20,000 bases of DNA from Atractiella rhizophila (Eukaryota), in NCBI GenBank assembly GCA_021432655.1, contig MU271373.1, forward strand, positions 59,325-79,324, given 5' to 3'. Made by a program: the position numbers and the translations under genes. Shown here one piece after another: positions 1 through 18,061 of this stretch. The notes beneath the pieces were generated by a model that had not been told where the DNA came from, searched no databases, and was given only the letters and a program-made list of their open reading frames with translations. Every line of letters begins with the position of its first letter. Within the stretch, counting starts at the first letter, position 1.

Positions 1-2396
1 AGACAAGGGGCGTACCTTGATTATAAGACATTGAACCTGATTCGATATATCTGAAAATTTTCGCCGATACTTCCCCCAGACGAATTCGGGTAAGATCAAA
101 GCTAAGCTCTGTATAGACGTTATCGGCATAACAAGGACGGGTGGTCGTCGTGAAAGGAAGCTCGGCATCGTTGCAGTTGAGCGGGACGATAATTTTGCGT
201 TCCAACCCCAGTTCATGGCGCATGTTGTTTATGGGACGATGCGAACAGACATCTTCATACTACCCCACAATCATCATCAGCCAAGTAACAGACTCGAACA
301 ACTCTACTGACCCACTGGAAGTTATAGAACAGCCAAAGGCACATCTCCCGCTTCTGTGTGTTGCTTCCCGGCGGTAGCCCTTTCGAATCAGCTGGCATGG
401 CAGAGACATCTTGTGCGAGCCGATGATATTCGAGTTGTTTGCAAAGCCGTATGCCAGCAGCAATGCGGTGTTTCTGGGTACCCTCTCTAATCACAGGAAC
501 ACCTGTACGCATTGACCTGTCACTGTGTAGAAAAGACTGATATCAGCGATGTTTCGATGTGTTAGAACGAGATTGCTCACAAAGGAATGAGAAGGGCAAA
601 AGCGAGACAAGCAAAATAACTAGGAGTTTCTTCCCATCTCGCGATTTCGAGAGCCATTGTGCTTGCTGCATGGTATACGATAGGGAGGGAGGCATAATCC
701 TCCTCCTCCAATACTCCAGGTAACGCTTCATCCTTTCCAGGCAAGTAACAGACCATACCCAGCGCGAGAACACCTGCTAGGACAGCAAGGAAGCAAGGTT
801 CGATCTTCCACAACGCCGTCAAGGATGGCAAATGAGAGGAACAGAGCCAAACACACACTTCATCCCTTAATCCACCTTCTACCAATACCCAATACTCATG
901 GTACCATGACTGCCACGAAGGAACGTGGATGATATGGTGACATAAAAATCGTTCAAAATACAGTCCCACGATCTTATCCATCGTCGTTCTGTCCTTGGGA
1001 AACACGGACCATATATTAGCCCGATTCTTCGCTTCTTTGTCTAGGTCCATCCGCTCAAGAATGTTTTGCATACGACCTTTCCTTGCTCCGCCTATCGTTG
1101 TAGAGGGATCCCTCAGAATTGCGAACGACATATTGGACTCTTTCAGGGTCGGTTGTGAGGACAGTGATTCATCAGCTTCACTTAGGCTTATTGCTGTTTC
1201 GCCGAGATGAATTTTGTCACATCAGTAATCAACATGCGTACCCATGTCCTCCAGCGTTTGTATGGTATCAGATTGTTCTCCTTTCACCTTCTCTGCCCCT
1301 CCGGTCATCGATACCGCACGAAGAAGTGACTCCAGCTGCGGCGACTCGAGCAAACCTTTCGGCTCTGACACATTTCGAACAGACCCTTGCTTCGGCGACG
1401 AAAGCTCGTTGGAGGATATCGATTCTGACTGAATATGTGACGGGATTCGGCGCAAATTTTGTTGTTGAAGCAATGCTTCAAGACGAAGAAGGCGCGTTTG
1501 CAGAGCGTGAACTGCGCAAACGTCTTTCAGCTTGTCACATTGTACTTGTCAGATAGAGGCGAACGATCGGATACGAGAGCGAACTATGTCGTTTGGGTCA
1601 GTGGAATTCAGTTCCAGATGGAGAGAATCTCACAGGCTGAGGCGCCACTTCCTGCGGAGTTTGCATGAGCCACAATCAAATCTCGAACTGCTGTGGGGTG
1701 CCATACCTTCTTCGTTTCCTAAGGACTTGATACATGAGCGCGCAGGGACAAAGGAGCGGAGTAACAAACCTCCCAATGGCATTTTTCATTTTCTCCTCTC
1801 TCTAAAGATCTCATGAAAGGGAGGCAGTGAATCGAGAAGAAAAAGGACGGACTAATGCAAGCGGTACAGGGCAGTTTGCCTGGTAATGAGAACATTTTAG
1901 CACTATCGGCAGCGTCAAAATTTGCAGACTCACGGTCGCACTGGATCGAAAGAATGAGCTATGAATGCAAGAAAATGTGATAGATGAGCTTACCTTTATT
2001 TTCCGTCTGAGAAGTAAGAAGGCATAAGCATATTCTACCAAAAAGCAGAGTGGAAATACGAACCGCTTGCATTCCTATCATTCACAATCAGTCACCATGT
2101 TCAACCTCTATGACCATTCTAATAATAATAAACTCACAGTGCTATTGCTCAATAGCAAATTGTCAGCAATGCCGCACTGCAAGCAGCACGGGAAACGACT
2201 TGCCAGCTAAGAACCTGTCTAAAGAGATACCAGAAAATTCGAGATTTCGGTCTGACAATACTATTACAAAGTAATTTACCTACCTATTCCTCTTCCGCTT
2301 TTGAGTTTCCTCGCTGGTTACATGTATCAAGTTCTCTTCTGAGCCCTGCACGAGATGATTGGAAAATGATTCATCGTCCTGAAAGATGTGCTCCAT
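1..2396 (-). CDS. Zn(II)2Cys6 fungal transcription factor with fungal-specific middle homology region (multi-exon, 3' end beyond window)
   Basis: Manual splicing from ATG 2396 gives MEHIFQDD...KRKRNRQVLSCTECKRRKIKCDRKLPCTACIKRGENEKCHWEETKKEVAPQPFALVSDLHALQTRLLRLEALL. This contains a complete C-x2-C-x6-C-x5-C-x2-C-x8-C cluster and a coiled-coil dimerisation helix. Downstream exons (ORFs 577-1131 and 255-512: LYFERFLCHHIIHVPSW, FLAVLAGVLALG, GIRLCKQLEYHRL, KREMCLWLF) resemble the Fungal_trans region. Confidence 0.9.
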
Positions 2397-2448
2397 ATGT
2401 ATTCCACAGGAATGTCGTTGATCGTTCCTTGCTGTGAGTGGTGATATC

Positions 2449-2490
2449 GGTTCAAGTTGGTTTAAGCCGGGGTTCCAGCCGGTTTAAGTT
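2449..2490. repeat. Four degenerate copies of a 10-mer (GGTTYMAGYY) just upstream of the TF start codon
   Basis: GGTTCAAGTT 2449-2458, GGTTTAAGCC 2459-2468, GGTTCCAGCC 2471-2480, GGTTTAAGTT 2481-2490. Confidence 0.6.
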
Positions 2491-2738: not shown

Positions 2739-4348
2739 CTAACCATCGATCTTCGGTATCCTCTTCTCCAACCATTCTGCCATATCGTCCAATTCCTCCT
2801 GCGAAGCAGTATGGACCACACCTAAACAATCAAACAACAGGCAACAAGCAGCAGATGAGATCACATGCAGAGATTGCGAAGGAGAACCGAATGGAAAGCC
2901 AAACGTACCATCATACCCTCTAAAATCGATATTCTTCATCTTCAACCTCTCCCGCATCCTGTGTCCCACATAACACGCATCACATTTCATCAGCACCCGC
3001 CAAGTCGAGCTGTTAAGGAATAGAACGGGGAGACAGACAAGGAAACGCTCATCTCTGCCCATTGGTATTTGATCAATGGATCCGCCTTCCCATGTCCCCA
3101 AAACACCTGCAGGTTCCTCGCGTGATCCGTCGCCAACTAATTGAGATTTCATAAGTGACGCAGTACAACAACGCAAAGCATGAGCTCAACATATATTGGA
3201 GAGCAGAAGGGAGGACGGACGTTATGGACGGTTTTGAAGAGAGGCAACCTTCCAGAGAGACTGACCTGACCTGCGAGTTTGAGCTCGGAGGTGATAGCGG
3301 CTAGCGAAGTGATAGTTGCGCCTTGCGCCCGCCCACCAATCTCTCTCAGGATCCTCAAACGAATTTACAAAGGGGAGGAGAGGGATACCTTGACTGAACC
3401 CGCCAATGACGACTCTGTCGCTCGGGATACCAGCCTCAACTTCGAGCTTCACTAATTCGATGATGGTCCTCGCGCTCTTCAATGTCCCATCTTCGTCATC
3501 CCTATCCCGTATGTGGAACTGGCGTCAGGGAGAGAGGGAAGAGGCACTGATTTACTCGATTGGAATCGAGACTGACTGGTAACTGTCGAGGGATGGACCC
3601 GTCGGTCCGAAGGAATAGATGTCAAACCTGTATCCAGTGTGATCAGGAATAATGTGGATGAGAATAAAGGAAATGAATGGAGACGGACCAGGAGTTCATC
3701 GCCATTCCTCCGTTCACTGTTACCTTGGCGTGCGGCCTACCAATCCACAATTATAAATGCAGTCCGACTCCGAGATAGATATATCACAGACGCGTTGGGT
3801 AGGATCCTTTGTCGCACGTTAGCATCCATGGAGGTAAGAAAGGAAGGACATGCCATTTAACGTGCGGGAACTTGTCCCCTAGATAATCTTTGAGGAATAT
3901 CCACCCATCACTCGAATCTCCTAGTCCCTTTCATCACTTCTCGTCAGGCTGCTCTTATTTCTTCAACGTTTTTGACAGAGCTAACGCACATGTGCAAAGA
4001 TCACGGTTGCAGTGTGTTTCTCTTTCGACTCAAAAGTCAAAGTCCTCGTCGCTGTTGTCATCGTCAATATGACATCCAGGAAAGCTTAATAATTGAAGCA
4101 CCTTTGTGAAAATGGTCCCCCGGCACCTCCAACAGAGGTTGTTTGGTGGGTGGTCTGCCTGGGAAGGAAAACATAGTTGTTGTTCTGGCGGATGGTGTGC
4201 TTGTGACTGATCTGCTAGCCCAAGCGGTGGCGATGCGGGAGGCCAGTTGGGTGGAAGGGAAGGTGCGTAGGCGGACGAAGAAAGCCAATGCTGCTGTGAG
4301 AATGAGAGCAAAAAGAACAAAGGGAAAGCGTCGTCGTTGGGCCATCAT
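2739..4348 (-). CDS. Acyl-protein thioesterase 1 / lysophospholipase-like (phospholipase/carboxylesterase family), multi-exon
   Basis: Spliced motifs: KHTATVIFAHGLGDS, PHVKWILPNAP, VTVNGGMAMNSWFDI, GGFSQG (nucleophile Ser), FWGHGKADPLI (Asp), GVVHTASQEELDDMAEWL (His). Stop at 2739. The start is uncertain (4348, 4174 or 4061). Confidence 0.9.
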
Positions 4349-5608: not shown

Positions 5609-8600
5609 TTAGAGGTATCGAACTTTGATTCTCAAGGCCGCCAGAGCGGCGAGCCTATACGCAACAACAACAGCCATCATGATCCTACACACGCATCCAC
5701 AGTGTCAGTATTCTCCTTCCAATGATGAAGGGAAAGGGCAAGGAGGAGAACTGACCCGATAAATTTACCAGTGTTTCGATCTTTGATCGAAAGGGTATCT
5801 AGCACCTGTTCACCCGTCACTTTTCCGCGATTCGAATCAGCGAGCGTCTTCCAATACAGAGGAATGGAGGATTGACGAATACTGACAAGCTAGACATTGT
5901 CCATTCGCGATTTGGTCCTGGGTACAATTGAATCGCAGCCCAATCATCTCATTGATAATCTGTATCCGCGAACTGATCTTGATCACTGCTACCCAAGCGA
6001 TAGCTTGGAACCAGGTGGGCACGTTAGCTGATACGATGCCAGAGATTATCGCCATCGTTGACAGTGCTATTCCGAGAGTCACACCATTAACGACCTTTGC
6101 TTGGCCGATGAAGGAGAGAGTGGACGTGCCTGAAGAAACGAGAGAGACCGAAAGACCGCCATTTTCGACGAAGGTGGAAAAGACGATCTGGATATCCGAG
6201 AAATAAGAAGTGAGATCAGGGAAGAAAACGTATACGCACCCCGATGCTCTCGCCCACAGATATGAGGGCCCAGCAGGAAGTAAAATATTCAAAGAAAATG
6301 CGCGGCGTCTGCGCAGTGTTCTCAACTTCAACTTCGCCAATAACAAAGGGAAAAGTAGGCTCACGTGTTGGAGGTCCATTCCATAGATGAAGATGATGGC
6401 ATAAAGCAGGGAGGCAATGACTTGAAAGGGGAGCTCAATAGCTGTATAGCTAAGGAGAAAAGTCTCTGGCGAGTATCGCGAAGTACTGGACCATTCATAA
6501 AGGAACAAATTCCTTTCGTTCGGATAGATTGCCATGGATGATAACATTCCGACGAACTGAAGAGCACTGTTTTGCTGGAACAAGCCGATGCGATTCTGCG
6601 ATCCGGTTGGACCGAGAGAAAGACGTTGATAGAAAAACCAAAAGATAAGAGCGAGGAACGGAGGGTTCACAGCCCTAACTGGAAAGACATCAGGTTGCCG
6701 TCGCATATTCTTCCAGCTTCGAGAGATGACCGTAGGTAACGCATAGCGCATTGGCGCAGATTTCGTATCATGTGCGATAACTGCGTCGTTGGCAGGTTGG
6801 CGTTCAGACGTTTTCGAAGCAAACGAGATTTGCTGGCTCCAGACATCGAGCATTTGGCTCAAACGTTTCGATGAACGATGCTCATCTTCCTTTGTACGCT
6901 TGTTGATGCTGATGGCGTCGATGAGAAAATCGGCTGGGTTGTAGTCTATATGGATCGTCAGACTAACTCTCGGCTCAAGATGAGCTTACCTTTGGGACAT
7001 TCCAGACCAATAGAAGCGAACGTTGGAAGAGCTTCGTCCTTCGGACCCCAGAACACTGTCTTGCCACCCTTGGCGAGCAAAAGAACAGAATCGAAGAGAT
7101 CCCAGATGTCCGAACGAGGTTGATGTATCGAAATGATGACGGTTCGCCCCGAACGTGCGATAGCAGAAAGGCACTCCATGATGTTGCGGGCAATGAAGGA
7201 ATCTAGACCAGACAGTGGTTCATCCGCTACTATCACTGGCGGATCGCTGAGTAGTTGGATCGCCAAAGACAGGCGCCTGCAGACACCTTAGTCTTCCTCA
7301 TGAGGATGTGCTCTTGACACACCTTTTTTCGCCCCCGCTGATGCCTGTATAGTTCAGTCAACGAGAGCGCGAGAAGCAGACGCAAATCTACCTTTGATCA
7401 AGTCACCTCCCACCAAGTTATCCGCACACTCTTTCAAGCCCAACCTATAAAAAGTCTGATTTTATGGTGGCGACAACAGAGAGAGAACTCACATCCTCAA
7501 AACCTGTTCTGCCCTGGCTGCTTTTTGTCGTTTGGTCATGTTTCGGAGCTTCAATACTGCAGCATATAGCAACGTTTCTCGCACCTATGGGAAACTATGA
7601 TCACCATCGCCAGTCTGAGATCATTGCTTACAGTGAGGGCGGGGAGAAGATGTTTATCGCTCTAGAAAGATAAACGATCAGTCTGGCCAAGTGTTCGGAA
7701 ACCAACGCACTTGTTCAACGAAACCACAGATATTTCGATGGTTATCGGCGGCATGTTCATTGAATTTAATCGATCCTTCGCACTTCCATTTAGATATTGC
7801 GCCTTCCTGGAGCTGGCCAGCAAGAAGTTGCAGAAGGCTACTCTTTCCAGCACCACTGGGTCCCTGTTCTGAAGTAAGCATCCTGGATTAATTTATTCTG
7901 GATACTTACCATGACGGCAGTGACTTTGCCAGGCATGAATTCTCCGAAGCACTCGTCGAGGATAACTTTTTCCTTCGATTCTTTTGGATGGACGAAAGCC
8001 TTCTGGATGACTGAAAGCCGTAAATGCTCCACGGAAACTTTGATGCCGTCCCTCGTCCGCTGGCTTTCAAGTTCTTGCAAGCTTGTTTTTTCTGTTCGTT
8101 TTAACTCAGCTTCATCCGTGTATCGCGCTCGTGCATGTTTGACGCCTCCAGGGTGATGCCACTGAAGAAGGATGAAGGATATCCTGTACAGCGTTAAGCA
8201 GAGCAATGAGTGACAAGACGCAACCATGAGAAAATAGCTGACGTGAACAAAAGAGTACAGAATGCCAGGATCCCCAACGGCCATGCTAGCGTTTCTGATC
8301 AGCATGATCTTGTAGAACGGATAAAGCATACCGTAATCGGGAATGCTTCCGTTGATTTTCATTCCTATAAGCACGTTTTCCCCTATGCATTGATTGGCCG
8401 CAGGTCCAGTAATCCCTGCAAAATTGTTCAGATCCCGTCACTCTTGTAAACCGAAGTCAAATACCTTTGCAGGCAAACCGTCGATCCTCGAATTGAGATG
8501 TTGCGAGCCAATGGAAGCCGTAATAATACGGACTGATCCACCTTGCCCATTTGCTTTCGGGCATGGTAAGTCTTGTGCAGTAGAAGAGATTAATTTCTTA

Positions 8601-11490
8601 CATGTAAACCGGGACATCAACCAAGACATATCCGGCAGTAAGAAGGAGAACTATTGAAGAGGCTATCCGAGTTGTTAGTCATCAAATCTGCCAAATTTTA
8701 TTGCTCACAATTTCCAACTAAACTTGCACGAGCGAAGGATCGACTTGTCGCCGCAGAAACGAGACCATAGCCGAAACTTGCAATTTGTTGGAGGATATGC
8801 TGTTGATATAGATAAGTTTGACGTTTGGTAAACGAAGCGACCTCCGTACGTTTGGCCATGAAGCAGCAAAAAAATGGTAAGCGAGATCGTCTTTTCGCAA
8901 TCCCGTCATAAAGTAGACGATGATGGAGTATACCGTGGGTCTAGTAATCAGTTTTAACATTTATCAAGATCAAAGGAGTAAACGAACGCTATCACATTGA
9001 TGGGGAGATATGCTAAATTAATAGCTACCAGGTAAGGCAGGGTTCCATAAAGCCCGTCCTCGCGCTCATAATCAAAAACGCGGAATTCAGAGCAAAGGAC
9101 GAAGGTGTAGACCATAAGGAGGAGATAATAGTTCATCACGTTGACGAAATAGCACCTGTGCAGCAGTGATGTAATAAGTTACCTTCTCAGTTATTAGGCA
9201 GTGACGCACAGCGTCTTGATAGATTGAATCCCACCTGGATTTTCTGGTAATTGGTAGAATGCGGCCCCAATTACAACAGCCATGATGATGGTCTGTATAA
9301 AGAATCCAGCTGTCTGCCCATAATTCCTCAGAACGTTCAGCAGGGCTCGTCTTGTCAGCACGATAGTTTGTCGCCACCACGATGGACGCTTGCCGATAAG
9401 CTCACTTCCTTCTCCAAAAGACGAGAACCGCTCAAGCTCATCGTTTTGATCTTTCTTGATATCTCCAATCGGTGACGGATCCTCCAGTGGGTACTTATCA
9501 TCTAAAACAGATGAAACTCGTTTCTCTGGGTCGACGTAAGTCGACATCTCGTCTAACGGCTCCTTCTCCAGTGAAGATCGATTCGAGGAAGCTTTCGCTT
9601 CCGTCGAAGGTTCATGGTTCGAACCCTTTGAATGTCCTGCCTTCTTTCTCCACTCTTCCTTCAGCTTCTCCACTCTCTCCGTGCTCTCTCTTTCGAGATC
9701 ATCGTCCCTCGTGTCGACGCTACTTAAATCGATGACCCAATCAAGAGGGTTCTGCTGCTTCAACAAGGGCTTATGACCAACGCTCCGGAAATATGACATG
9801 ACATCTTTTGTCGCACCAGCGTAGACGAGAGACCCTTTCGTGAGGACCGCTAGGCGGTCGAAGATTTTGAACACTTCTGAGCGAGGCTGGTGGATACTCA
9901 AAATAATTGTACGCCCTCGACGGGATAATTGCGATAACGTGGAGAGGAGTTGATACGACGAGAAGGCGTCCAGCCCTGTTGTGGGTTCATCCAAGAGGAG
10001 GACAGAGGGGCGGGTGACCATGACACAACCAATGCTTAATCTGCATGTTATTTAGTTCCGGTCATCCATTAAAGGATGAGAGGAGGGCACACCGTCTGCG
10101 TTCACCACCTGAAATTCCCTGCACATTGACACGTTAATCACGCAGAGCTCAGTTGTAAACGAGGGAATGGCAGCAAACCTTCCTCCCCCACCCTCGTCCA
10201 CCTTCCGCTCCAACAATGGTTTCCGCCTGTTCTTCCAGACCCAGCTCGTTCAAAGTCTGTTGCACAATCTCAGCGACAATGCTCGCCGGCGCGTCCGATG
10301 GCAATCTGAGTGCAGCGGCAGTTTCCAAAGTTTCCCTTACTGTCCATGCCAACCAACCACGTCAACTGATCCAGGATTTCAAGAAAGTAAAGGTGTGAAG
10401 CGCACCAGTCAGATACGGCAACAAACTCGGGTCTTGTTTCACATATCCCACGATCTTGCTAATCCCTCGTGGATGTTTGTGCTCTTTCGAAATTCTCAAA
10501 CCTCCGGACACAGATGGACCTGAAGAGCGAGGGATAAAGCTGATCTCGCCGGAATCCATTTCGAGATTGGCCAGACGACCGGCGAGTGAGGAAAGAAGCG
10601 TGCTCTTGCCGCTTCCTGAGCCCCCAATGCTGAATGACTATCAGTGTGGTTCTGGGACTCTTAACTCCTGAGAAGAGAGGACATATTTTCCTGTCAGCTA
10701 AAGGGCAACTACTAACACTAGCAATTGTACCCAATGGATATTAACATTGTCAACTTTACTAGCAGTGGAATTGGACAGGAAGGTCCGTAGCAATTGTACC
10801 CAATGGATATTAACATTGTCAACTTTACTAGCAGTGGAATTGGACAGGAAGGTCCGAAATCCTTATTTCAGTTCATGAGGTCGTCGAAATCTCTGCTCGA
10901 GTCCGTGGTGCTTCGAAATTGTGCATTTAGTGTTGCTTGTAACAGGGAAACACCGCCTCCACTGCGATGCGGTCTTTGCGACTCGACAGAAGTCTCTCTG
11001 CAGCACTGAGAGCTTCAGACAGCTTAAGAAAGGCTCAGTGCCAAAGCAGCTATAATGCGCTGCAGAAAAGAGAAATCTCCATTGGAGCTACTGTGACAAT
11101 AGGATTCAAGATGTTTCCGTTCCCTTGCAGCTGATTATATCGCTAGAGTGTTAAGCAACCCAGAAGAGCTTCTTTGGAGAATCAATAACAATGTTAGGCA
11201 AAGCATTCCGTTTGACAATGAGCAAAAGCGCTCGCGATCATCTTTCCTCTAGCAAACACACCGATTCGCCGAAGGCAGACAACAACTCACATGGCAAGTA
11301 CCTCGCCTTTCTTGCACGTAAGACTAACATTGTCCAACAATTTCCTCTGCACTCGCTTCTTCCCAAACCAATTTTCAGGCAGATTAACAGTGAAGGGTAT
11401 CAGCGGTATCCTCTGCGTCCCTGGCGGTGGAGAGATCGTCAACCCTTGGACTTTGACGTCGAAGGAAGGTGGGGAGGGCAAGCCTGGCAT
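5609..11490 (-). CDS. Full-size ABCG-type transporter (NBD-TMD-NBD-TMD), YOL075C-like, many introns
   Basis: NBD1: IIGGSGSGKST, GYVKQD, GISGGERRRLSIG, LLLDEPTTGLD, ILSIHQPRSE. NBD2: GPSGAGKSS, GFVEQ, GISGGEK, VADEPLSGLD, ISIHQPRSD. Two ABC2-type membrane domains. Spliced C-terminus ...YRLAALAALRIKVRYL with stop at 5609; first in-frame ATG at 11490. Confidence 0.92.
10719..10856. repeat. Perfect 69-bp tandem duplication inside ABC transporter intron 1
   Basis: TAGCAATTGTACCCAATGGATATTAACATTGTCAACTTTACTAGCAGTGGAATTGGACAGGAAGGTCCG occurs at 10719-10787 and again at 10788-10856. Confidence 0.97.
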
Positions 11491-14291: not shown

Positions 14292-15867
14292 TCACTTCTT
14301 CAAGATGTCATTGCTCCTCGTACTATCCGTATCCCTTTGCGCGGACTCAACCGCTCTATGAAGCATCACCTCATTAGCCTCTTCTACCTCCTTCTCTTCT
14401 GCGAGGGCGTCGACCATAACATCCGAAATCATCTTCCAGGCCTCCACGCGGGCCTTATTATTAATTTCCCTCTGCCTCTTACTCCACAGCTCCGGTTTGG
14501 CGTCGAAGGCATGTCCGACCTGCTCAAAATTCCTATGCCGAACTTTCACTCCTAGATCCTTCAACCGGTCGGAGAAATCGTCCGCTTCTTTTGCCAAATA
14601 GTCTCGCTGTGCCGAACAGACGACGGTGGGGGGAAACTTCTCTAGCACGACGTTGGGAGCGAGAGCAGGAGAGAGTGCGAGATCGGTTGTGAGACGAGGT
14701 GGGGGGACGTAGCATCGGAGGAAGAGGAGAGACATCCATGATGGCAGTCCTTCCTTGCTCGCAACCATCATCGATAGTTTGTCTCCATAAGGGATGGAAA
14801 GATTGAGGACGGGGTAAAGGAGTGAACAGGAAACAATCTTTGCGCCAAAGGGAAGTGGTTGGAGGATGGACAGAACGGTGAGGGAGGCACATAGGTTGGA
14901 ACCTGCCGAGTTTCCGAGGAGGGATATGCGTTGGGATGTGATCAGTGGCCGTATAGCAGGTGGAAGGTGTGGGAGAAGTGCGCCGGATGAGAGCCACTGA
15001 AGTACGGCATGAAGTTGAAAGATTGCGTGTGGATACGGGTAGCGGGGTGCTTTGCGATAGTCCGGCCTGGGTTTGTTCTCAGTGGATGCGGCAAGTAGAG
15101 AGCAGAGAGACGAACGCAATCACCACCGTTTCAAGCTCGTCCGCCATGTGGCGACAAAGAGTATAATCTACGTGCGGTCGACATCTACGCGATTCGTATT
15201 AGTTTCGGAGACTGTACACAAGAGAGAAACATACATTGTCCATCCACCGCCGTGAAGACTCATGACAATCCCCCTCTTCCCCTTTCCATCAAGGCCATAA
15301 GCTGAGGTGCCATTCTCAATCCTCTCGAGTAGTTTCTTCTTATTCGGAAGCCAAACCTATCCGCCTTGTAGTTAGCATTAAAGCCACAAGTTTGGAGTAA
15401 GGATGTTACCAGACAATTGCATTTCCCGGTATCCCCAGTATCAATGGATATTTTGATCATGTCCCGAAAGGGAAAGATGTATAAAGAAGAGCAAAGGATA
15501 TCGAAGCCGGCACGAATGAGAAATCCACCTATCCCAAACGCCATGAATCAGTAACGTCTCCTTCCGCGGCTTTTCATCAAAGCAAAAATCTGGGTGAAAA
15601 TCGCCTGGACTCACTCCACATAACCTTCCTCTTCGCCTTCTCCTCCATATCCCAGTGCGTCTTCAAACCAGCTCTGCAATACTCTCTCATGGCATCCTCC
15701 ATCGTCGCATGTCCCTCCCTATACCCCTGAGAGCCCTCCAAGCCACTTTCATTTTGCAAAAGAGCCAGCGAATCCGCAAGGGAAACCACAGAGTCAATAT
15801 GTTGAGGCAGAGTTCGAGAGAGCCGCTTCGAATGGCGGGAGGAGGAAGTGTTTTCGCGTCTTGGCAT
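14292..15867 (-). CDS. Alpha/beta hydrolase, hormone-sensitive-lipase-like family (Abhydrolase_3), 5 exons
   Basis: Spliced motifs: SLHGGGW, VVIAPDYRKAPRYPYPHA, LLGNSAGSNL, LLYPVLN, LSP, FPPTVVCSAQRDYLAKE (Asp), VGHAFD (His). Stop at 14292. Confidence 0.9.
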
Positions 15868-16168: not shown

Positions 16169-18061
16169 TCAGTGTTGCGACCTGCAATGACCTTCATTAG
16201 CTCTTGCCCCTAAACTAGCGGAAGACTGAAGAGAGCTCACCAATTGATGGTCTTGAGGTCAATGCCTTCCTGAACCATTTCCCAAAGCGGCGAAAGGTCC
16301 CTGAGCTCTACAATCCAGCAAAGATGCACAGTCAGCATCCTATCATGCGCACAAGACAGAAAGGAAGCACGCACTCTCGACAACTTTGACCAGTTTCTCG
16401 ACAACAAAGTCTATCTCCTGCTCCGTTGTAAACCTTCCGATTCCAAAACGGATGGACGAGTGCGCCGCATCTTCTTCAGCCCCTAAAGCGCGGAGGACGT
16501 AGGACGGCTCGAGCGAAGCAGAGGTGCAGGCTGAGCCGGAGGAGAGAGCGATGTCTTTTAGGGCCATGAGAAGGGATTCACCTTCGATATAATTGAAAGA
16601 AAGGTTGACACTAGATCCCCATCAAGAAGTACATGAGTACCTGTGTTGAAGGAGTAAATATGAGGGAGAAGAATACGTACCATCCCGGATACCCATTGAC
16701 ATCTCCATTCCTCACGATATGGGTACAGCGACTCATGACACCGTCGATAAGTCGCTTCGACAGCCTCTCCACATGCTGTCTATCCCTCTCCATCTCCAAC
16801 TTGGCGATCCTACACGCCTCTCCAAACCCAACCACTAAGGGTGCAGGGACGGTTCCACTCCTCAGCCCCCTCTCTTGTCCACCTCCAGAAATGATCGGCT
16901 CCAATCGAACGCGGGGTCGGCGTCGAACGTAGCAGGCTCCTATTCCTTTGGGACCATACAGCTTGTGTCCTGAAATGGACATCAGGTCGATCTGCGACTT
17001 GTTCACGTCAAGTGGGATCTTTCCAACCGCTTTGGAAGAAATTGTTAGAGTCGCAATTGGGAGGAAGGACGAAAAGGTCGCACCTTGAGCTGCATCTGTG
17101 TGGAAGTAGACCCCTTTGTGCCTCTTGATAATTTCACCGATTTGATCCAGCGGCTGGATAACACCAATCTCATTGTTGACCGTCATGATCTGCTCCACAT
17201 CATCAGATTGATGTCTTCTCCGCTTGTTACAGCGAATGAATAAAAAGACCAATGCAACATACCGAAACGCAGACAGTATCCTCCCTAATCGCATCTTCCA
17301 GAACCTTTAGGTCCACCAGTCCGTTCTGCAACACGGGAAGATATGTGACATCGAAACCTTCGTCTTGAAGCGCTCTGCAGGAGTCGAGAACGCATTTATG
17401 CTCCGTCTGCGTGGTGATTATATGCTTCTTCTTGCCTTTATGAAACCTCGCAATGCCTTTAATAGACATGTTGTTCGACTCAGTGGCGCCGGAGGTAAAA
17501 ACAATATCCTTCGCATCAGCGCCGATGACTGAAGCAACATGCTGGAATATCGAGGAAAAGAAGGTTAGATGATGAGAAATAGGCCTATGCCGGGAGATGA
17601 CATACTGCTCGTGCTTCCTCGACTGCCGCCTCTGTCTCCCAACCGTAGGCATGGGTGCGAGAATGTGGATTCCCATAGTAAGTGGTCATGAAGGGGAGCA
17701 TTTTGTCGACGACTCTGGGGTCCATAGGAGTTGTAGCCTGTTCAACACAATACAATTAATTAGCAAGACTGCAAATGAAACTTGAAACAAAAAAAGCATC
17801 ATCAAGCTAAGAAGAGGTTCGAACCTGCATGTCAAGATATATCGGCCGTCCCTCCACCTTCGGCAGTCCCATCTTTTCAACCACCTTCTCCTGCTCCTGG
17901 ACAGAGAACCCCAGCATGGAGGCCGAAGGGGTCAAAGTGTCGTTGACATTGACATTGACTGCAGTCGCGTTTCGGACAATTGGCGAGCGACTGGAAAATG
18001 CTCGCACTGAGCGGGGAGATGTGCGCGAAAGCAAACGAAGGGCGGCAGGTGAACGTAGCAT
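16169..18061 (-). CDS. NFS1: Mitochondrial cysteine desulfurase
   Basis: Arg/Ser-rich presequence [75 protein letters not shown] (PLP Lys), [30 protein letters not shown] (catalytic Cys). C-terminus [12 protein letters not shown]-stop. Confidence 0.97.

Follow-up and report, generated by a model that had tools for sequence, protein, structure and literature searches.

The 20,000 nucleotides (nt) analysed here, which we call the window, correspond to positions 59,325 to 79,324 of contig MU271373.1 of the basidiomycete Atractiella rhizophila; all coordinates below count from the first letter of the window. At the start of the window, on the minus strand, lies quite probably the 5' part of an expressed Gal4-type Zn2Cys6 transcription factor gene that contains ten micro-exons, including one of only 4 nt. 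The reading frames at this end belong to BT69DRAFT_296121 (P0003, 812 amino acids (aa)), a gene that extends beyond the window start. We identify the window with this locus because its spliced sequence reproduces residues 1-518 of P0003 with zero differences when the public choice of a 19-nt exon is used (2396-2284, 2218-2200, micro-exons 3-10, 1511-1242, 1193-859, 804-581, 522-312 and 259-16). Residues 1-40 of P0003 map to 2396-2277 by tblastn. A query with the 203-residue exon 583-1191 (minus strand) returned two longer database matches among 5064 candidates, namely P0003 and P0004 (BT69DRAFT_296154, 832 aa), an A. rhizophila paralogue on the same 79-kb contig; Pfam PF00172 is on record for both. 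The locus of P0004 was not found by tblastn within the 20,000-nt window. The exons, and the evidence for each, are as follows.

2284..2396, minus strand: exon 1, 113 nt, ATG at 2396, donor GTAGGT; equals the first 37 residues of P0003
2204..2218, minus strand: micro-exon 1, 15 nt, GC donor GCAAGT at 2203; spliced search
2138..2141, minus strand: micro-exon 2, 4 nt (CACT), acceptor AATAG, donor GTGAGT; predicted from homology, splice signals and spliced search
2064..2074, minus strand: micro-exon 3, 11 nt; spliced search, public model
1994..2006, minus strand: micro-exon 4, 13 nt; spliced search, public model
1934..1940, minus strand: micro-exon 5, 7 nt; spliced search, public model
1853..1879, minus strand: micro-exon 6, 27 nt; spliced search, public model
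1770..1801, minus strand: micro-exon 7, 32 nt, holds the sixth Cys; spliced search, public model, X5 contig (30 nt)
1707..1718, minus strand: micro-exon 8, 12 nt; X5 contig, public model
1634..1651, minus strand: micro-exon 9, 18 nt; X5 contig, public model
1565..1583, minus strand: micro-exon 10, 19 nt, linker end; X5 contig, public model
1242..1511, minus strand: exon 12, 270 nt, begins leucine-rich; RNA contig piece, public model
1193-859, 804-581, 522-312 and 259-16, minus strand: exons 13-16, middle region; contig joints, public model

The ten micro-exons had been proposed from the letters alone, and extraction at the coordinates of this original prediction returns the predicted lengths, joined in frame. 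Together they amount to 158 nt within 654 bp, and six of them do not exceed 15 nt; once joined, they are open in frame 2 only. Exon 1 ends in phase 2, and its last two bases start an Arg codon that is finished by micro-exon 1. The nine introns between the micro-exons measure 62, 63, 57, 53, 54, 51, 51, 55 and 50 nt, in agreement with the predicted range of 50-63 nt; all ten acceptors are YAG, nine donors are GT and one is GC (GCAAGT at 2203). A rerun of the open reading frame (ORF) listing gave the same outcome as before, with the micro-exons absent from it as one frame. One correction concerns the region beyond the range of the prediction: the exon that follows 1565 begins at 1511 with a CAG acceptor, as found in the public model and in an RNA contig piece, both of which use it in place of an in-frame acceptor, GAAAG, at about 1524. 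Further downstream, a 54-nt in-frame intron (805-858, minus strand, GTGTGT..GGAAG) lies inside an apparent long ORF, 577-1221; it is removed in the X5 and X3 contigs and in the public model, and a plain ORF reading adds 18 false residues.

The domain had been described as hidden, but this did not hold when the public annotation was checked. P0003 includes nine of the ten micro-exons, and its public form scores 24.8 bits with Pfam Zn_clus (cut-off 21; profile positions 4-35 of 39). What it lacks is the 4-nt exon alone, and hence the first Cys. Neither is the protein an apparent 'Fungal_trans only' model, since it has Zn_clus and no Pfam Fungal_trans match at E<=0.01. The public model lengthens micro-exon 1 to 2200 (19 nt, donor GT at 2199) and skips micro-exon 2, which would finish the codon of the first zinc-ligand Cys. 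Two in-frame models therefore have to be weighed. In model A, that of the original prediction, the 15-nt exon is followed by a 62-nt GC-AG intron, CACT and a 63-nt GT-AG intron. In model B, the public one, the 19-nt exon is followed by a single 125-nt GT-AG intron. Model B keeps the frame by coincidence: moving into the GCAAGT donor as far as its GT adds 4 nt, and the exon that it leaves out has the same length. The two versions differ at two residues, 43 (C in model A, W in P0003) and 44 (T and Q, respectively).

With the two bases of exon 1, the splicing of model A yields R plus 52 residues, in which six Cys are spaced 2-6-5-2-8. The claim of canonical spacing was correct, the pattern conforming to C-x2-C-x6-C-x5-12-C-x2-C-x6-9-C; the public splicing retains five of the six. 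As in Gal4-type Zn2Cys6 proteins (PF00172), this spacing is accompanied by a basic stretch between Cys2 and Cys3, a linker and a leucine-rich segment. The leucine-rich stretch that opens exon 12, seen by eye, is probably a candidate dimerisation coil. Fungal_trans (PF04082) gave no Pfam match, neither with single exons at E<=1 nor with P0003. The middle region is nevertheless probably a divergent member of that family, since a relative from Mixia osmundae, P0012, aligns over residues 27-671 (31% identity) and carries PF04082 at 39.9 bits (cut-off 23). The predicted protein, composed of zinc cluster, linker, leucine-rich stretch and large middle region, is thus an ordinary Gal4-type regulator as judged from its sequence, no different from others of this type; the gene structure alone is unusual.

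The exon chain was compared with chance by a spliced dynamic-programming search over 1450-2450 (minus strand), in which a position matrix from 73 homologue segments of the same Cys spacing, own-species models left out, was combined with GT/GC..AG introns of 45-130 nt, each carrying a penalty. The best path scored 97.1 bits and consisted of the end of exon 1 and exactly the first seven micro-exons of the original prediction; in the weakly constrained tail the 12-nt exon was jumped over. None of 60 dinucleotide shuffles came near this value (mean -24.5, standard deviation (sd) 6.3, maximum -8.7), and 34 other 1-kb tiles of the window, taken on both strands, reached at most -1.0 bits. A chance origin of the micro-exon chain is excluded. 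The same tiles contained no second Zn2Cys6 gene with this spacing elsewhere in the window.

Transcript sequence covers the 3' part of the chain. Five sequencing runs (X1-X5) were found, and contigs of X5, X1, X2 and X3 were placed on the window. X5 holds 0.40 of the sampled words, about the expectation for exons alone, while X1-X4 hold small shares, X1, X2 and X3 being used for joints only. The X5 contigs are spliced at 259/312, 522/581, 804/859 and 1193/1242, all with CT..AC ends that correspond to GT..AG on the minus strand, and three of these four downstream joints are also crossed in X1, X2 and X3, one or two per run. Record 9 of X5 (929 nt) comprises 581-804, 859-1193 and 1242-1511 plus 79 bases upstream, which equal 19+18+12+30 nt, i.e. 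micro-exons 10, 9 and 8 and 30 nt of micro-exon 7. At the joint from 1653 to 1769, nine letters lie in between and three flanking letters fit either side, which together make up the 12-nt exon. By our calculation, the depths of bins 1480-1566 and 1567-1653 correspond to 34 and 37 covered bases, respectively, at a depth of 37.9, and these fit the expected exon pieces (1480-1511, 1565-1583 and 1634-1653). Transcript sequence thus supports the acceptor at 1511 and the last four micro-exons, those of 12, 18 and 19 nt in full and the 32-nt one for the most part; the other six micro-exons rest on homology, splice signals and, for five of them, the public model.

Some contigs deviate from the window. 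Loose contig ends at 1769 and 2397 translate, in our reading, to the paralogue P0004, with its start M-V-M-E-H and with synonymous changes in its 12-nt and 18-nt exons. This match indicates that the paralogue is also expressed and spliced alike at those junctions. Relative to the window, an X5 contig carries A>G at 670 and G>T at 689, and an X1 contig A>G at 205; these mismatches may represent an allele, a second copy or another strain.

Model A, with the 4-nt exon included, is very likely to be right over model B, which we take for an annotation error and not for the main isoform. Among the collected proteins outside the species, Cys occupies the first position in 106 of the 108 homologue matches to the Cys2-Cys6 pattern; the two exceptions carry M and A, the N-terminus being truncated in one of the two, and W is found there only in the own models of A. 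rhizophila. The same five residues surround the first Cys in many relatives. P0003 and P0004 are identical at 57 of 58 positions over residues 33-90, the micro-exon part, compared with 561 of 775 elsewhere. Such identity points to strong purifying selection on the domain, so that the loss of a zinc ligand is implausible. The splice signals argue in the same direction. Thirteen reference introns of the gene measure 48-65 nt (mean 53.9, sd 4.3) and have G at +5 without exception, whereas model B uses the donor GTCGTT, with T at +5; the donor matrix of the gene itself gives this donor -2.2 and the reference donors 3.7-8.9. The two introns of model A, by contrast, both have G at +5 and score 1.1 (GC, with C at +2 penalised) and 7.6 as donors; in both, a CTNAY motif precedes the acceptor, by 21 and 13 nt respectively. 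A weak hint comes from read depth near the ATG. Bin depths of 61.5, 25.2 and 58.3 fit one contig with a depth of about 121.7 that covers 44 bases at the ATG, 18 at micro-exon 1 and 32 of micro-exon 7, as calculated from rounded depth figures for a contig that is the paralogue's. Eighteen bases fit the 15-nt exon plus three chance-matching upstream bases and so favour model A; a 19-nt exon with the same three bases would need a longer first piece than the bin allows.

Several points weigh against this preference. GC donors are rare, and the score of GCAAGT is low for this gene. When only GT donors are allowed, the spliced search returns model B at 87.9 bits and finds no path that restores the first Cys; neutralising the four profile columns that surround the first Cys likewise returns model B, at 88.3 bits. 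The 4-nt exon therefore rests on homology and splice-signal arguments. Our own hidden Markov model from 106 homologue segments gives the peptide of model A 69.6 bits and the public form 62.5 bits, a comparison that is partly circular because the source sequences were chosen for having all six Cys. No contig piece falls on 1828-2175, which leaves micro-exons 2-6, with the 4-nt exon among them, and the GC donor without direct transcript support; this gap says nothing either way, as exons of 4-27 nt are too short to be placed. Finally, we infer that the ten micro-exons are constitutive, and contigs cannot reveal minor isoforms. A protein search for the first-Cys version from transcripts gave three matches among 38 candidates, two of them truncated same-species models with the public reading and the third a metagenome relative.

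That the public model describes the true main isoform, with 2218-2200 joined to 2074 and W-Q where the first Cys and the next residue would stand, is unlikely. Both of its splice sites are canonical GT-AG, one intron fewer and no 4-nt exon are required, and it is the best path if the search is confined to GT donors or blind to the first Cys. It still passes Pfam Zn_clus, and the same reading appears in four public models of the family in the species (P0003-P0006), which, however, come from one annotation run and are not independent. It would remove a ligand that is almost invariant among the homologues while the paralogues hardly differ over the domain, and it calls for an intron about twice as long as any reference intron, with a donor that lacks the +5 G and scores below all 13. 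With model A preferred, the public proteins of the gene and of its paralogue probably carry a two-residue error that removes a zinc ligand.

Related proteins may point to the same difficulty in other genomes. A phmmer search of P0003 against 1.84 billion representatives gave 1393 matches at E<=0.001, of which the best 150 were taken; they include proteins from Mixia, Meredithblackwellia, several Rhodotorula, Sporothrix and Lactarius. The linker motif occurs in 33 collected proteins outside the species, and in 18 of them an intact six-Cys cluster precedes it. Of the remaining 15, two match the motif at a site remote from any N-terminal domain; with these two set aside, the clusters are damaged in 13 of 31 (P0013, P0014, P0018, P0019, P0026, P0028, P0029, P0032, P0038, P0055, P0102, P0141 and P0143). 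P0008 is damaged likewise but has no linker motif and stands outside this count. By our comparison, the gaps in several damaged models coincide, to the base or to within two bases, with what single micro-exons encode here: P0014, P0019 and P0039 are without the five residues of the 13-nt exon, P0008 without the four residues of the 12-nt exon, and P0028 without the whole cluster. On this comparison the split structure may be common to the subfamily, and the same annotation problem is likely in other species. The statement that gene predictors often miss Zn-cluster domains, made at the outset as established, is backed by these 13 of 31 relatives, by the report on A. nidulans Zn-cluster domains missed by gene predictors (PMC8396895) and by PMC11121469. 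A scan of metagenomes with an alignment of the two paralogues gave 582 pattern matches, none of them a relative; one of the two patterns lies within micro-exon 7, so that genomic or spliced copies would be caught.

The N-termini of P0003 and P0004 recur almost unchanged in two short models from other contigs of the same species, P0005 (84 aa) and P0006 (72 aa). P0005 reads into intron 6 and P0006 into intron 3, each followed by a stop, and the predictor evidently struggled here. The intron reading of P0005 shows small indels relative to the window. Near-identity together with indels indicates that the assembly holds a second copy or haplotype of both paralogues. P0006, which represents a copy of the paralogue, reads through the intron preceding micro-exon 4 and ends within the sequence of that exon, which implies that the acceptor of micro-exon 4 would be the same in P0006.

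For the expression of the gene we propose the following. Eleven introns of 50-65 nt would split the DNA-binding domain and linker into the ten micro-exons. Short fungal introns are recognised as units (intron definition), and those of the chain would most likely be removed one by one in this manner, as is usual for introns of this kind. Intron definition implies that exon size is not limiting; it is cited for S. pombe in PMC11121469. A complete six-Cys cluster would result only when 2141-2138 is included, by removal of a GC-AG and then a GT-AG intron.

It had been suggested that skipping a micro-exon would frameshift the protein and that splicing could act as an on/off control. The first part stands for six of the ten micro-exons, as loss of the 4-, 11-, 13-, 7-, 32- or 19-nt exon leads to a premature stop; it fails for those of 15, 27, 12 and 18 nt, whose loss keeps the frame. 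Intron retention leads to a stop for 11 of the 15 introns of the gene, the four exceptions (57, 54, 51 and 54 nt) being read through, and for seven of the 11 that bound micro-exons. The second part, on/off splicing control, is unsupported here. A narrower version is that the GC donor at 2203, the GT four bases on and the 4-nt exon offer two alternative splice routes, both in frame, and that the paralogue preserves this choice. We consider this very unlikely; if it were true, the public form would dimerise but could not bind DNA, and would amount to a built-in off or dominant-negative isoform. About as unlikely is the chain as an on/off device that works by condition-dependent skipping or retention, or by an in-frame choice between the GC and GT donors with loss of zinc binding. 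The stops just described and the fact that the choices at 2203 and 2199 are both in frame would suit such a device, and Xlr2 of Trichoderma virens provides a precedent: its 20-nt micro-exon encodes two Zn2Cys6 Cys and is included only without glucose (PMC11121469). Against it, any exon whose length is not divisible by three is expected to shift the frame when skipped, basidiomycete genes with no known regulation commonly contain micro-exons (PMC12230235), and the placed contigs show nothing but the spliced form where they cover, minor forms being beyond what contigs can reveal. A likelier but milder proposal than a splice switch is that the micro-exon structure is ancestral to the basidiomycete Zn2Cys6 subfamily with this linker motif and corrupts its public models. 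A chance arrangement or a decaying, functionless pseudogene copy, for which the several near-identical copies in the species with truncated public models (P0005, P0006) might be invoked, has next to no probability left in view of a spliced score that none of the 94 controls approaches, a stop-free stretch of 518 residues, spliced transcripts in four runs and a domain strongly kept between the paralogues.

The introns themselves gave no sign of a recent common source. Over 105 intron pairs, introner-like similarity was not found, the mean local score being 11.44 compared with 11.27 for shuffled sequences and the highest pair score, 18, lying below the shuffled 99.9th percentile of 22. No tandem repeat with the period of an intron plus an exon was found either. 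Similarity at shuffle level and the absence of such a repeat rule out a recent introner burst or a tandem origin of the introns.

Long runs of consecutive micro-exons are a feature of the micro-exon genes (MEGs) of Schistosoma, which the present gene resembles in this respect. The lengths of MEG exons are divisible by three, and alternative splicing shuffles these exons so that the secreted products vary. Here, in contrast, six of the ten micro-exons are not multiples of three, and a conserved fold is encoded. No fungal report of such runs was among the literature matches listed. A close parallel shares with our gene a micro-exon that encodes a zinc-ligand Cys of a Gal4-type domain: the Xlr2 micro-exon is missing from the JGI (Joint Genome Institute) consensus model, and a protein made without it has no working DNA-binding domain (PMC11121469). 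Xlr2 has one micro-exon with an experimentally established glucose dependence, whereas here ten occur in a row, the smallest of 4 nt, in a basidiomycete, and any regulation is hypothetical. In a long-read annotation of Coprinopsis cinerea, about 9% of gene models have a micro-exon of 15 nt or less, down to 1-3 nt (PMC12230235), and P450 genes of Phanerochaete contain internal exons of 2-10 aa (PMC1184071). The likeness lies in tiny exons between introns of about 50 nt, the omission of which breaks gene models; those reports concern genes with at least one micro-exon, whereas here ten consecutive ones span a whole domain, in a member of the Pucciniomycotina. Plant micro-exons of 15 nt or less (PMC8831610) fall into the same class of annotation error and call for the same remedy, a profile of the coding neighbourhood with GT/GC..AG gaps. 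They differ in their plant setting of long introns and exon definition, and they have no link to Zn2Cys6 domains.

Neighbouring genes in the window are listed below, the first of them just upstream of the micro-exon gene.

2739-3600, minus strand: Abhydrolase_2 (phospholipase/carboxylesterase), fragment 3222-3482
5840-10051, minus strand: ABC-2 type transporter
14295-15119, minus strand: Abhydrolase_3
16614-17685, minus strand: class-V aminotransferase

By eye, these neighbours have short introns, and several show long uninterrupted frames, which indicates that the run of micro-exons is local to the 5' part of the present gene.

The gene is an extreme micro-exon case but ordinary in kind, to which a small likely annotation correction is added, and the understanding of how such regulators work is unchanged by it. 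A dense run of micro-exons over a whole conserved fold is a demanding test case for gene predictors and spliced aligners. Should it be confirmed, the 4-nt exon flanked by one GC-AG and one GT-AG intron would provide a natural substrate on which two spliceosomes act four bases apart. Given the 13 of 31 relatives with damaged clusters, counts of Zn2Cys6 factors in intron-rich basidiomycetes may be biased.

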